A DNA stretch of 39,944 nucleotides. It comes from Candidatus Limnocylindrales bacterium. Lineage in GTDB: Bacteria; Chloroflexota; Limnocylindria; Limnocylindrales; CSP1-4. The notes under the pieces were generated by a model. That model worked only from the letters and a program-made list of their open reading frames with translations. It did no database searches and was not told where the DNA came from. Positions 7,704 through 18,701 of the stretch are shown in pieces. Every line of letters starts with the position of its first letter. Position 1 is the first letter of the stretch. The DNA lies in the NCBI GenBank assembly GCA_039925225.1, contig JBDSZH010000061.1:1-39944 (forward strand), read 5' to 3'. The translations under genes were made by a program, and so were the position numbers.

Positions 7704-9107
7704 TCAGATCCAGTCCGTGCGGATGACGTCCTCGTCCTTCATCAAGAAGATGCCGTTGGTGAGGTACTTCTCCAGCAGGTCCTTGTGCGCCTTGCCTTCG
7801 GGCTTGTCCTCGACTGCCTTCATCACTGTGTCGATGTGGAGCTTGACCGCCTTGCGAGTCATCGACGCCCACTCCGGCTGCGCGATGCCCAGGGCGTCGT
7901 AGGCCGGCTGGAGCTTCGCCCTGTAGTCCGCGCCAAAGCGGGTGCGGACAACGGGCCAGAAGCGGAGGCGCAGGAGAAGCTGCATGACCTTCTTGCCGCG
8001 GTCCTTGCGGTCCGCTGGCGTCCCCGGGTGGGCGATCATCTGCTGGATGGGCAGGTACACCGGCATGAGCTGGTCCGACGTGAGGTCAGGCCCGGTCCCG
8101 CCGTACATAGCCCCGGCGACGTCGCGCCACATGCCAAGCGCCTGTGCGTACAGGGGACCCGCTGCCGCGAGGCTCGGGTCGCCCACGATGTAGCCCTTCT
8201 TCCGAGTCCACAAGGCGCTCGACCCGCGACGATCCGATCGAGTGAGGTTGCCGGCCCCCTCGGTCGCCTCCGCGAAGCCCGCGACGTGATCTGCGGATCC
8301 CTGCTTGATGCTCGGCGAGAACGACGTATACGACCACGCGTTCTGGAGGTTCGGGAAGACCTTCACCACGAGTTCCACGGCGGCGATCGAGAAGCAGGCC
8401 GAGAACATGATGTCCTCCACCTGCCCGGCGGCAAGCGGAAAGACGTCGGCGATGGCCTGGAGGTCGCGGTCGATGACCATCTTGCCCGGCTGACTCTCCT
8501 GGCCGGCCTGCGACTCGCCCCACAGCTCCACGCCGTTGCTGTGGCCGGACAGGACGAGACGGTTGAGGATCATGTCGCCCTTCTCGGCCTTGTTGAACCA
8601 GCGCATCATGTCCACGAGCTGCTCGCGCATGTGCACGTTGGCCTTGAGCAGGACGTCGCTCGCCGCGTCCCACCGCGCGAAGTCCCCGACGCTGATCCCC
8701 AGTTCGTCCCAGACGAAAGTCATGATCTCCGGGTCCTTCTGGAAGCGAGCCTCCGCGACCGGGTCGTTGTACGACTCCAGGACATCGTCGCGGGTCGACT
8801 TCTTCAGCTTCGCGGCTTCCTTGTCCGCACCCGGGTTCAGCCCGACGAAACCGGTGGTCTTGCGCGGCGCCGCCTTGTCCGCGCCGGTGATCATGTCGGG
8901 CTTGGTGGCGTCGGGCTTGTCGCTCGGCTTCTTCTCGTCACGCTGAACAGAGGCGATCGCCTGGGCAACGGCGCGGTTCCCCGCGGTGCGCTGAAGGTCC
9001 AGGATCCGGTTCGTCGTCGACGAGTTGGCGGGCGTCCGCATCGCGCGGTGGGGCTCACGGAAGAGACGCTGGGCCCCGGGACGCTCGGCTACCGCAGGCA
9101 CGGGCAC
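7704..9107 (-). CDS. Uncharacterised protein with LQRxxGNxAV/VQR N-terminal motif and caspase/CHAT-like His-Cys dyad
   Basis: Long Lys-rich ORF with native codon usage. ILDLQRTAGNRAVAQ...VQR; LVLSGHSNG and IMFSACFS motifs. TGC-CATGAT lies 6 nt before the GTG at 9107. Confidence 0.75.
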   Translation of the reverse strand: MPVPAVAERPGAQRLFREPHRAMRTPANSSTTNRILDLQRTAGNRAVAQAIASVQRDEKKPSDKPDATKPDMITGADKAAPRKTTGFVGLNPGADKEAAKLKKSTRDDVLESYNDPVAEARFQKDPEIMTFVWDELGISVGDFARWDAASDVLLKANVHMREQLVDMMRWFNKAEKGDMILNRLVLSGHSNGVELWGESQAGQESQPGKMVIDRDLQAIADVFPLAAGQVEDIMFSACFSIAAVELVVKVFPNLQNAWSYTSFSPSIKQGSADHVAGFAEATEGAGNLTRSDRRGSSALWTRKKGYIVGDPSLAAAGPLYAQALGMWRDVAGAMYGGTGPDLTSDQLMPVYLPIQQMIAHPGTPADRKDRGKKVMQLLLRLRFWPVVRTRFGADYRAKLQPAYDALGIAQPEWASMTRKAVKLHIDTVMKAVEDKPEGKAHKDLLEKYLTNGIFLMKDEDVIRTDWI

Positions 9108-9292
9108 GGCCCCATCATGGCAGGCTCGAAGCCCGGATTCCACTCCCTCAGGCGAGTAGCCGCTCCGCGACCGTTTCCGGCCCGCCGCGCCGCCGCCGAT
9201 CACCGCGAGGTCGAGTGGCTCCACACGGCCGATCCCTAGCCAAGTACCGTGTGGGAGATGGCCACCACCGAACTCGCGCATCAGGTGAGCCC

Positions 9293-16161: not shown

Positions 16162-17091
16162 TCAGCGCAGGATCTCCACGACGTCGCCATCTTGAACCTG
16201 GTGATCGCGACCCACGCGCTGACCCTCGAATCGCGCTGACGGGCCCCAGATCCGCGCGCCCACGAAGCTTGCCGCGATGTCCTGGTGGATCCACGTGGCG
16301 ACGTCCTCCACGGTCGCTCCCGGCGTGAGCGCGAGCGGCTCCTCGTCGGTCTCGCCGTTCGTCCGGAGCCGCACCCGGATGAGGCCGGTGAGGCGCCAAG
16401 CAGCTTCCCGGAAGGCATCGAGGCTGGCCTCGTCGATGACCGATACGACCACCATCTCCAGGTCCGGAAAGGCGGCCCGCAGCCGCTCGATTTCCTCGCG
16501 CGACGCCTCATCGGAACGGGTCGATGCCAGGAACGAGGGCTTCTCGATGCCCGCCAGGGCGACCTCGGCCACCACCGCCTGGAGCTCGCGCGGGTCGGCG
16601 TCGGGTCGGGCGCAATAGATGATCGCGTCGGCGGATCTGAGCACCCCGAGGAGCGCCCGTCCCCCACCCCGGTCCTCGGTGGCGCCCTCGATCAGCCCGG
16701 GAATCTCCACGAGCTGCACAAGCACGCCGCCAATTCGCGTTAGTGCCGGAATCGGCCGGAGCGTGGTGAACGGGTAGTCGCCCGTCTTGATCTGGATCTC
16801 GCTGAGCGCCTGGAGCAGCGAGCTCTTGCCGACGTTGGGTGGCCCAACGAGCGCGATCTGCGCGGCCCCCTCGCGCCGGACCGCGATCGAATCGCGATGC
16901 ACCGCGCTGGAGCGAACGCGCGTGTCGTCGATCTCCGCCAGCAGGGACTTGCGAAGGTCCGCGTAGGGACCGTTCTTGTAGTCCGGCAGCTCCGCGAGCA
17001 AGCTATTCACCTCGCGGATCCGTTCTCGTCCTTCTTTTCCTACGAGCCGTCGCTTCGCCACCTGGGCGAAGGTTCGATGCGGCATCGGCAT
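16162..17091 (-). CDS. DRG/OBG-family ribosome-associated GTPase with C-terminal TGS domain
   Basis: G1 GPPNVGKS, G2 YPFTT, G3-like EIPG, G4-like TRSD. TGS domain GATVEDVATWIH...ARIWGPSARFEGQRVGRDHQVQDGDVVEI, typical of DRG/Rbg proteins. Confidence 0.88.
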   Translation of the reverse strand: MPMPHRTFAQVAKRRLVGKEGRERIREVNSLLAELPDYKNGPYADLRKSLLAEIDDTRVRSSAVHRDSIAVRREGAAQIALVGPPNVGKSSLLQALSEIQIKTGDYPFTTLRPIPALTRIGGVLVQLVEIPGLIEGATEDRGGGRALLGVLRSADAIIYCARPDADPRELQAVVAEVALAGIEKPSFLASTRSDEASREEIERLRAAFPDLEMVVVSVIDEASLDAFREAAWRLTGLIRVRLRTNGETDEEPLALTPGATVEDVATWIHQDIAASFVGARIWGPSARFEGQRVGRDHQVQDGDVVEILR

Positions 17092-17199
17092 GTCGATCTC
17101 CCGTTGATCAATGGAGACGACGCGGCGCGCGCAGCCATCGCTGCGGCAGCGGCTCGCGTCCGTCCCGCCCCTTCCTCCGACGCTGGATGTGGAAGGGGC
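17092..17199 (-). promoter_or_regulatory. Attenuator-like 5' leader with three hairpins, the last sequestering the GTPase SD
   Basis: Hairpins at 17167-17199 (GCCCCTTCC/GGAAGGGGC), 17119-17160 (GACGCG/CGCGTC) and 17092-17121 (GTCG-TCTCC/GGAGA-t-CGAC, covering the GGAG SD). Confidence 0.6.
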
Positions 17200-17202
17200 C
17201 GA

Positions 17203-17271
17203 TCAGCCTGCCTGGTGGAAGATCGTGGCAGCCCACGCGTCGATCGGACGCCGGGCGAGGTAGTGGTTCAT
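17203..17271 (-). CDS. Putative leader peptide MNHYLARRPIDAWAATIFHQAG (22 aa)
   Basis: ATG lies 9 nt downstream of a TACCCT -10 box (17281-17286), the same architecture as other leaderless genes here. The stop is 3 nt before the first leader hairpin. Confidence 0.55.
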   Translation of the reverse strand: MNHYLARRPIDAWAATIFHQAG

Positions 17272-17318
17272 CGCGGCCGAAGGGTACACGACGGGCAGCC
17301 GGCTGCGGGCGCGCGGCC

Positions 17319-18701
17319 CTACGTCGCGATGTTGTGGTTGCGGCGGAACACATTGTCCGGATCCCAGGCCCGCTTGAGGGCCGCGAGGCGCGGCAGCTTC
17401 GCGTCGCCGTAGATCTGGCGCGTCTGCTCCGGGCCGTACTCGCACAGCCCATTGAGGTACCGCCCGAGGGTCAGGTCCGGTGCAACCGTGGCCATGACCT
17501 CGCGAACCCAACCCACGTTCAGTTCGTCCTGTCCGGCGTCGTCCCAATCGCTGTCCGCGCTCAGATCGAAGCCGGCGTTCCGGCCCGTGTAGGCCATCGC
17601 GTCGTCCGCCACCCGCGCGATCGCGCCCCCGTGAACCGTTGCGGAGAAGGTGGCGCCATCGGGCGCGCGTGCGGCGAGTTCCACGAGCGCATCGATGGTC
17701 GCGGGACGCAAGTCATCCGCATATGCGCTCTCGATGATGGACCGGTGACCCCAGCCCATGGCCAGGTCGTTGGCGGTCTGGACCTCGAGATACTCGGCCC
17801 CCTTCTCCGATGCAAAGACCGGCTTGGGGCCGGCTCGGAGTGGCGCCGTATCGCGCTCCACCGCATCTGAAGCGCCACTGTGGCTGTACCCCACGATCAC
17901 GATCGGCCGGCCCGCCACCGCGGCCGGATAGTCCGCCGCGGGCACACCACGCCCGATGACCATCCCCATCGAGACAGCGTCGGCGAGCCTGGGAGCCGCG
18001 TCACGAACCATCGACCAGACCTCGTGGGCCTGCGACGCCGGATAGATCTGGACGCCGCGATGGAGGATGCCGTCGAACGGGTGGAGCCCGAATTCGAAGG
18101 CGGTCGCGACGCCGAAGTTGTGGCCTGCGCCACGCATCCCCCAGAAGAGCTCCGGCTCTTCGGTCGCGCTCGCACGAACCTTCCGGCCGTCGGCCGTCAC
18201 GAGCTCGACCGCGATCAGGTTGTCGATGGTCAGCCCGAAGTTGCGCTGCAGCCGCCCGATCCCACCGCCGAGCGTCAGCCCCGCGACCCCCGTGTGGCCG
18301 ATCACCCCCACCGGGCAAACGAGCCCGTGGGCCTGCGCCGCCACGTCCAGCTCGCCCAGGAGCGCGCCGCCGTTCACGCGCGCGACGCGGGCCGACGGAT
18401 CCACGGTGACGCCGCGCATCGCGGACATGTCGATGACGAGGCCGCCGTCGGTGGTCGAGTGGCCTGAGTTGCTGTGCGCGCCCGACCGCACGGCGATCTC
18501 GAGCTCGCTGTAACGCGCGAAGCGGATCGACGCCGCAACATCCGCACCGCTCGCAGGCCGGACGATGATCGCCGGCCGTCGATCGCTGTACCTCGCGTTC
18601 CAGACGCGGCGGGCGAGCTCGTACGCGTCGTCACCCGGTGCGATTACCTCGCCGGTAAGGGATTGCCCAAGTCGCGCGATGGACGAAGGGCTGCTTGTCA
18701 C
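17319..18701 (-). CDS. FAD-binding oxidoreductase, berberine-bridge-enzyme (BBE)/VAO family
   Basis: VRSGAHS covalent-FAD His motif, GLTLGGGIG, LFWGMRGAG.NFG, and C-terminal LKRAWDPDNVF. Confidence 0.92.
   Translation of the reverse strand: MTSSPSSIARLGQSLTGEVIAPGDDAYELARRVWNARYSDRRPAIIVRPASGADVAASIRFARYSELEIAVRSGAHSNSGHSTTDGGLVIDMSAMRGVTVDPSARVARVNGGALLGELDVAAQAHGLVCPVGVIGHTGVAGLTLGGGIGRLQRNFGLTIDNLIAVELVTADGRKVRASATEEPELFWGMRGAGHNFGVATAFEFGLHPFDGILHRGVQIYPASQAHEVWSMVRDAAPRLADAVSMGMVIGRGVPAADYPAAVAGRPIVIVGYSHSGASDAVERDTAPLRAGPKPVFASEKGAEYLEVQTANDLAMGWGHRSIIESAYADDLRPATIDALVELAARAPDGATFSATVHGGAIARVADDAMAYTGRNAGFDLSADSDWDDAGQDELNVGWVREVMATVAPDLTLGRYLNGLCEYGPEQTRQIYGDAKLPRLAALKRAWDPDNVFRRNHNIAT

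Follow-up and report, generated by a model that had tools for sequence, protein, structure and literature searches.

A conserved leader precedes the gene of a DRG-related GTPase on the minus strand of a stretch of 39 944 nucleotides from Candidatus Limnocylindrales bacterium (the whole stretch analysed is called here the window). Our best reading is a translational attenuator of the toiL/secM kind: a ribosome dwelling near the end of a short uORF probably switches on the GTPase, which would in turn act on stalled ribosomes. That a ribosome on the uORF controls the SD of the GTPase gene in some way, whatever the detail, we consider very probable. Comparison of orthologous sequences supports the proposal by showing a recurrent box upstream of the uORF, a reading frame that is kept, a Trp codon at position -10 from the stop, a fixed spacing of 3 nt between the stop and the next hairpin, covariation in three predicted helices (P0, P1 and P2) and the tie of this leader to this gene.

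Layout of the leader in the window

Read along the minus strand, the end of a FAD-oxidase gene is followed by the hexamer TACCCT, a 9-nt gap, a 22-codon ORF, a GC hairpin, a long second stem, the SD GGGAG and the GTPase gene. The features, with what each assignment is based on, are the following.

17319-18701, minus strand: FAD-binding-4/BBE oxidase gene, directly upstream of the leader on the same strand, with its stop at 17319
17286-17281, minus strand: putative -10 promoter hexamer TACCCT (TAnnnT in orthologues); sequence, and gap statistics in orthologues and in the genome
17271-17203, minus strand: uORF of 22 codons plus TGA (ATG at 17271, TGA at 17205-17203); frame kept in orthologues
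17233-17235, minus strand: Trp codon, ten codons before the stop; candidate tunnel-contact residue
17217-17225, minus strand: 5′ strand of P0, uORF codons -7 to -5, the predicted anti-SD; cognate duplex energy, pairing and covariation
17199-17191 with 17175-17167, minus strand: hairpin P1, 9 bp, starting 3 nt after the uORF stop; covariation
17179-17183, minus strand: P1 loop motif GCGUC, 5′ strand of a predicted H-type pseudoknot; pairs with 17160-17156
17155-17166, minus strand: segments B (GGGAC) and C (GACGC), 5′ strand of P2; C doubles as pseudoknot partner
17125-17154, minus strand: variable inner hairpin of P2, differing in length and sequence between orthologues
17113-17124, minus strand: segment D, 3′ strand of P2 (P2 stem, 17166-17155 with 17124-17114)
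17094-17102, minus strand: SD and spacer, GGGAGAUCG, 3′ strand of P0; sequence, cognate duplex energy and pairing
16162-17091, minus strand: DRG-related GTPase, 309 aa; Pfam, PDB sequence matches, Foldseek and tree

The preliminary description of this locus had reported the TACCCT hexamer with its 9-nt gap and 22-codon ORF, the 9-bp GC hairpin and the second stem; all are present in the window, and in orthologues the hairpin covaries and the stem shows two-sided changes. It had also noted that the second stem shares bases 17119-17121 with a third stem that would bury the SD; the overlap does exist and extends further, over about 8 bases (17121-17114).

The fold of the window leader alone is barely above chance (z of -1.77, with 9 of 200 shuffles equally good) and a sigma-70 promoter scan found no promoter. 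Since these single-window signals are weak, the case against chance rests on the orthologues. Rfam gave no gathering-score match in the window (best E of 3.5 within 17000-17400), no terminator-like hairpin was found on the minus strand between 15000 and 19000, and the aligned leaders carry no U tract after the stems. Two metatranscriptomes contain 5-6% of the sequence words, and RNA-derived contigs of relatives cover 17095-17260 and bridge 16940-17235; because contigs cannot show start, strand or level, they were not used as evidence. Elsewhere in the window, an ORF of 525 aa on the minus strand (7704-9281) has an N-terminal ILDLQRTAGNRAVAQ-type motif, which we take to resemble that of DUF4157/eCIS-associated proteins.

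Conservation of the uORF and of its promoter-like box

After removal of duplicates, 133 loci reach the N-terminus of the GTPase; 108 of them fit a stop-plus-hairpin pattern and one more (L135) was added by hand. Where a TAnnnT box is followed by an ATG at a gap of 5-11 nt, this ATG is in frame with the conserved stop, and the frame is open, in 92 of 97 cases; the uORF is interrupted in three of 109 leaders (L036, L069 and L094). The frame is kept in spite of varying length, with nine classes of 13, 14, 16, 17, 18, 21, 22, 23 and 26 codons. A Trp codon stands at position -10 in 107 of the 108 uORFs (108 of 109 with L135); the search pattern was anchored on the hairpin, with Trp as a tie-break, and an analysis without the Trp criterion gave the same result for Trp. 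The consensus end is W-x-A-T-I-S-[NRK]-[QKR]-[NT]-G-stop. Following Trp, Ala is found in 75, Thr in 70, Ile or Val in 91 and Ser in 70 of the 108 uORFs, and the last four residues are Asn/Arg/Lys (89), Gln/Lys/Arg (95), Asn/Thr (100) and Gly (97), the uORF closing mostly with Q-N-G-stop. A uORF conserved across orthologues, on which the preliminary description had made its proposal depend, is thus borne out by the kept frame, the nearly invariant Trp and the Q-N-G end.

Several properties are counted against selection at the level of the peptide. The three codon positions are equally variable (0.36, 0.36 and 0.35), the A-T-I-S block is accounted for by P0 pairing (see below), and Trp has a single codon. 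The third base of the last codon is C in 107 of 108 uORFs, and where this codon encodes Gly it is GGC in 96 of 97 cases, against a background of 57%; a C fixed at this place suggests a constraint on the RNA. In favour of such selection, the nearly invariant Trp codon shows no signal of cognate pairing with the start region. Nor was a signal detected between the stop region or the Q-N-G codons and the downstream region. Pairing of Q-N-G with the stretch after segment C (-5.5 versus -5.1 in shuffles) was too small for use and was dropped.

The gap between box and ATG is 6-11 nt in 96 orthologues, with a mode of 9. In the genome from which the window comes, TA[CG][ACG][ACG]T boxes precede the ATG of long open frames mostly at gaps of 6-9 nt: these four gaps account for 45, 54, 33 and 25 cases, and every other gap from 0 to 25 nt for at most 11 (1332 boxes). 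TACCCT therefore has the typical signature of a leaderless-type promoter in this organism, and the uORF transcript is predicted to be near-leaderless, starting 0-4 nt before the uORF ATG. The same pattern of gaps gives many genes of this genome the appearance of being leaderless.

A conserved helix predicted to cover the SD

P0 is predicted to pair uORF codons -7 to -5 (17225-17217) with the SD and its spacer (17102-17094). The mean energy of the cognate duplex is -14.57 kcal/mol, against -12.94 with permuted partners (best of 5000 permutations, -13.73) and -11.1 with shuffled uORFs; a control stretch of the uORF gives no cognate gain (-11.5 versus -12.0). The core is paired in 91% and the outer three pairs in 69% of 47 aligned rows. 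Of 37 leaders showing the canonical P0 motif, 32 pair the third, synonymous position of the Thr codon with a base of the SD spacer (16 as G:C and 16 as C:G, leaving 5 unpaired), and switches between G:C and C:G on the protein tree number two that are forced and three to four that are likely. Compared with the partners of its three nearest relatives, the cognate one is better in 56 leaders, worse in 40 and tied in 13; this gain is small, so that much of the P0 signal lies between clades, and related leaders are not independent in any of these statistics. Only 69 of 103 minimum-energy folds contain P0.

The local alternative is the third stem, GTCG-TCTCC / GGAGA-t-CGAC (17121-17113 with 17101-17092), in which segment D pairs with the SD and which the preliminary description had made responsible for burying it. 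This stem is able to form in the window. In its fixed register, however, 52.7% of the cells are paired versus 53.4% in shuffles (47 rows), and a crude duplex test of D with the SD gives a median z of -0.3; as a conserved anti-SD it was rejected. Local folding from D to the start closes the SD more than in shuffles in 81 of 109 leaders, and D:SD pairing was retained, for this reason, only as a variable second lock. Occlusion of the SD before the GTPase gene thus stands, with compensatory changes to back it, and it is the strand that has to be reassigned: comparison of the leaders suggests that the conserved occluding strand is the coding sequence of the uORF itself, acting at long range through P0, rather than the third stem.

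P1, the predicted loop pseudoknot and P2

Covariation, which the preliminary description had named as a check on its stems, is seen in both P1 and P2. In P1, 99.7% of the cells are paired and four of the nine pairs are changed on both sides (79 rows). The 3-nt spacing between the stop and P1 is fixed; none of the 79 rows, which had been picked without any spacing rule, shows a gap on the way from the Trp codon to the 5′ arm of P1. In P2 (B and C with D) 79-81% of the cells are paired and five pairs show two-sided changes. RNAalifold, run unaided on 47 rows, recovers P1 and a small inner helix only, and neither P0 nor P2.

The loop of P1 carries GCGUC, complementary to the downstream GACGC of segment C and paired with it in 94.9%; one of these pairs has a two-sided change and three have one-sided changes. 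The loop is thus predicted to be able to form an H-type pseudoknot with C, the covariation being thin and the loop penalty lying outside the estimate. Neither this pairing nor P0 is part of the preliminary description. The 3′ strand of P2 also overlaps P1: of the two final bases of P1, the first can pair with D in 95 and the second in 102 of 109 leaders, the first of these positions having been unscored in the search. Five leaders (L059, L071, L072, L075 and L178) contain long extra hairpin insertions, which bring the spacer to 150-250 nt; their core and P0 complement are mostly kept.

Computed effect of a ribosome on access to the SD

The energy needed to open the SD was computed for 103 leaders, six with very long spacers being excluded. 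It is 6.3 kcal/mol without a ribosome and 6.4 kcal/mol with the Trp codon in the A site, a position at which the SD is more open in 27 leaders and more closed in 31. It falls to 3.6 with the P site at codon -8, to 3.8-4.0 at codons -5 and -3 and to 3.4 kcal/mol at codon -1; for this last position, the SD is more open than without a ribosome in 68 of 103 leaders and more closed in 7. The modelled shift thus amounts to some 3 kcal/mol, and two thirds of the leaders move in the direction expected.

When the strands of the pseudoknot are engaged, opening costs 4.7 kcal/mol with the ribosome at -5, and moving it from -5 to -1 makes the SD more accessible in 50 leaders and less so in 13. When only the region downstream of the stop is considered, in all 109 leaders, access to the SD decreases in 58 and increases in 6 once the pseudoknot is engaged; if 6-15 nt after the stop are blocked, access increases in 50-56 leaders and decreases in 7-14. 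In direction, these modelled shifts fit a leader that would be OFF by default and ON upon stalling; their size is modest. The model does not single out the stop, codon -8 opening the SD as well as codon -1; what suggests the stop as the site of dwelling is the fixed spacing to P1 together with the overlap of D with the base of P1, not the energy. An earlier version of the switch model, with the whole uORF blocked, was discarded since opening of the SD was then trivial.

The GTPase

The preliminary description had called the product a DRG-type GTPase. It is indeed related to DRGs, to judge from its sequence, without being a canonical member. Pfam recognizes MMR_HSR1 (78-186) and TGS (250-308), no NCBIfam family scores above its cut-off, and the best PDB sequence matches are yeast Rbg2 (3e-28) and Rbg1 (2e-26), with Obg at 1e-14. 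The predicted structure (pLDDT of 92.5) has Rbg1 as its top three fold matches in Foldseek. It shares with DRG/Rbg proteins (Rbg1/Rbg2; PDB 4a9a, 7rr5, 7nrc) the order of N-terminal helices, G domain and C-terminal TGS, the predicted helices (5-16, 21-34 and 42-62) aligning only loosely with DRG N-termini. It differs from them in being bacterial and in the absence of the S5D2L insertion, residues 171-192 standing opposite Rbg2 155-250 across a long alignment gap. Canonical GTPases have DxxG as G3 and NKxD as G4; here G1 and G2 are intact, G3 is EIPG in 100 of 106 and G4 T[RK]xD in 103 of 106 sequences. In a quick tree, whose root is unreliable, 15 sampled leader-bearing proteins form one clade (SH-aLRT 99), on a branch separate from a clade (99) of classical, MPTN and MPANL DRGs (these group names are ours). 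A second DRG-related family of bacteria, with an MPANL start and about 325-338 aa (L144-L156, L167 and L168), was met in Chloroflexota and Actinomycetota; it too lacks most of the S5D2L insertion, and this leader does not precede its genes.

According to PMC8629797, DRGs are absent from bacteria, and the S5D2L of Rbg1 contacts the A-site tRNA, its loss being better tolerated than that of HTH or TGS. The absence here of the very domain that makes this contact counts against a GTPase acting like DRGs. DRG/Obg GTPases relieve stalled ribosomes in yeast and human cells according to the accessible portions of two preprints from one line of work (one of them 10.1101/2024.04.20.590341), which treat Obg as the bacterial counterpart and, in those portions, have no mention of a bacterial DRG, a uORF or a leader.

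Distribution and the tie of leader to gene

The leader is found before 109 of the 114 orthologues (at least 60% identity) with full upstream DNA, which come from Chloroflexota, Actinomycetota and other contigs; L174 and L189, cut by a contig end, were left out of this set. By title, the nearest loci belong to Chloroflexota, with Ca. Limnocylindria frequent among them, and Actinomycetota come next. The five orthologues without it are L015, L204, L018, L024 and L034. In L015 and L204 only a 3′ remnant (segment D and the SD) is retained, as if loss were in progress, and L024 has a -10 box near the gene without a uORF.

With a covariance model trained on 79 rows, 24 additional loci, among them one duplicate of a training row, score 55-98 bits; the model has no match before 15 MPANL-type DRG paralogues or before nine distant short-type genes. 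In 150 genomes of the class it gave 13 matches, of which 12 are strong and all lie directly before the GTPase gene (five are training rows); the thirteenth is weak (32.5 bits) and unrelated to this gene. The genome of the window, which is 63% complete, has one strong match, the next scoring 23.7 bits. The idea of a regulon was given up, no second strong copy being found in this genome, in the 150 genomes of the class or in four Actinomycetota genomes.

The GTPase gene itself is accessory and patchily distributed. It has strong matches in 14 of 36 genomes of the same genus (plus one partial match) and in none of 24 genomes of a second family, these genomes being 58-94% complete. Among 301 Chloroflexota genomes, 26 have a DRG-like gene, 12 of the short type and 14 of the paralogous MPANL type; in a sample of 351 Actinomycetota genomes, there are 6, with 3 of the short type. 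The genes on either side differ between loci: when other frames of the GTPase gene are set aside, each neighbour family recurs at 13 of 108 loci at most, and the FAD-binding-4/BBE oxidase family is nearby in only 10 of 108. DRGs of eukaryotes need a DFRP partner; here no conserved neighbour emerges as a candidate partner of the GTPase.

Possible mechanisms

We would picture the attenuator as follows. By default, the near-leaderless transcript would fold with P0 closing off P1 and P2, and the SD would be shut. During quick passage and termination of a ribosome, P0 would open only briefly, and the loop pseudoknot would free D to act as a weaker second lock on the SD. A ribosome parked at the end of the uORF would instead cover the P0 strand and melt the base of P1; this would break the pseudoknot, and D could then join P2 and pair with the two bases at the foot of P1, so that the SD would be accessible. 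The dwell time may be programmed by the nascent peptide (Trp -10, N-G-stop) and be longer when ribosomes are impaired. The GTPase may act on stalled ribosomes as its DRG relatives do, possibly on its own leader as well, and a feedback loop is conceivable. A more specific version, which we hold only tentatively and rather doubt, is that W-x6-Q-N-G-stop is a termination-arrest peptide which, with the double lock gated by the pseudoknot, times the stalls of the cell's own ribosomes and induces a minimal, partner-free DRG that clears them; this might be one case of a wider habit.

Other explanations have to be weighed against this attenuator. Part of the evidence would fit plain translational coupling, in which each ribosome opens P0 briefly and output follows the rate of leaderless initiation without any sensing of stalls: P0 alone accounts for A-T-I-S, no codon position is more variable than the others, and the uORF ATG mostly lies no more than a few bases from where transcription is predicted to begin. 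Yet this would leave unexplained the Trp at -10, the 3-nt spacing, the pseudoknot motif and the overlap of D with the base of P1, and the uORFs of L135, L138, L140 and L142 have an SD of their own and a longer leader; we find it improbable. Still less likely is that P1 and the pseudoknot form a module that binds the GTPase, through its TGS domain, or another protein, as leaders of ribosomal-protein genes do, the uORF only tuning the response. P1 and GCGUC/GACGC are conserved in sequence as well as in pairing, as such a binding site might be, but their double pairing roles explain this conservation and the register to the stop indicates a ribosome. A stop followed by a pseudoknot also resembles viral readthrough signals, and in the window the GTPase lies in the frame of the uORF stop and no further stop separates the two, so that readthrough, frameshifting or selenocysteine insertion could produce a fusion of the two. 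Across the 108 loci, however, the uORF stop and the GTPase start are in frames 0, 1 and 2 in 39, 35 and 34 cases, all three stops are used (TGA 88, TAG 17, TAA 3) and the GTPase gene has retained an SD of its own. Because of the frames and the stops used, recoding was rejected, and we give it practically no weight. We are just as sceptical of a sensor of tryptophan starvation, which the invariance of TGG might call to mind: there is one such codon only, the target has no link to Trp, and in the model a Trp codon in the A site leaves the SD as shut as it is without a ribosome (6.4 versus 6.3 kcal/mol).

A ribosome-binding antibiotic as the trigger of the same switch, the GTPase being then an inducible protection factor like HflXr or ABC-F proteins, is the alternative that deserves most attention, although we regard it as unlikely. 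In the model the SD opens wherever a ribosome stalls between codon -8 and the stop, and the gene is patchy. In toiL, pairing along the uORF lets several classes of drugs induce, and Ala, Ser and Thr, in which the present uORF is rich, favour chloramphenicol stalls (both from the available part of PMC12121999); MsrDL, as described in part of PMC10314930, stalls at its stop with erythromycin. On the other hand, no conserved R/K-x-R/K motif is present close to the uORF end among orthologous uORFs, the recurrence at no more than 13 of 108 loci holds for every neighbour family (families unannotated), and the peptide end appears to have been kept across two phyla for longer than a single drug would explain.

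Relation to known systems

To judge from sequence, layout and target, the leader is none of those of toiL, msrDL, secM or hflXr, and no intrinsic terminator was found in it. A close system is toiL of E. coli topAI-yjhQ, where the uORF itself pairs with the downstream ribosome-binding site and a stall frees the site; as presented in the accessible sections of PMC12121999, it is one hairpin before a toxin-antitoxin pair, whereas here a long-range helix closes two stems and a loop pseudoknot, the transcript is mostly near-leaderless and the target is a ribosome GTPase. With msrDL-msrD the leader would share a stall at the stop over the next hairpin, and feedback. Yet msrDL, in the part of PMC10314930 at hand, has 6 codons, depends on a drug, prefers UAA and controls an intrinsic terminator; the present uORFs have 13-26 codons and all three stops, no minus-strand terminator was found, and control would be at the SD. 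In secM-secA and its kin (NSP-stop, DGMK-stop, KYxIW), a ribosome parked at the end of the uORF frees an SD, as is proposed here; some of them stall at a stop codon and one class has a Trp motif 7-11 residues from the stall site. These are longer peptides with targeting signals, and what they monitor is Sec or YidC (PMC7897499, PMC10987492), and an ending W-x6-Q-N-G-stop is not among the arrest motifs in the accessible text of these two papers. Finally, rli80-hflXr of Listeria also has a short uORF and alternative RNA structures before an accessory ribosome GTPase of the Obg/HflX superfamily, but the available part of PMC6310831 describes transcription attenuation, an RLR macrolide motif and an HflX paralogue, while here control would be translational and the GTPase is DRG-related. 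In the literature covered, neither this leader nor any uORF preceding a bacterial DRG is described; subscription papers and supplementary motif tables may contain such a description.

For GTPases described as absent from bacteria, and whose exact role on stalled ribosomes is debated, the leader would be a ready-made sensor of the stress in which the cell wants more of its DRG relative, and the 309-aa protein, lacking both S5D2L and any evident partner, would offer a minimal model of how DRGs function. To the known attenuators it adds a candidate arrest motif and a layout of three helices plus a pseudoknot. Should the trigger be an antibiotic, it would point to inducible ribosome protection of a new class among bacteria of soil and sediment.

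Leaders of distant family members

The wider habit mentioned above was considered because distant members of the GTPase family carry other uORF leaders. The loci L172, L175, L177 and L213 are distant, AT-rich members of the short family; the leader model has no match upstream of any of them. By eye, and with no control, each has in the 300 nt upstream a different ORF of 16-30 codons, then hairpins, and two of the four have GGTGA SD motifs, which we take to be archaeal-looking. In L176 (1090-1411), a uORF of 29 codons, rich in Arg and Phe, is followed by a U-tailed, terminator-like hairpin, and upstream of L197/L199 two such terminator-like hairpins stand in tandem (both by eye); judged from their sequence, the upstream regions of L176 and L197/L199 look like transcription attenuators before the same GTPase family.
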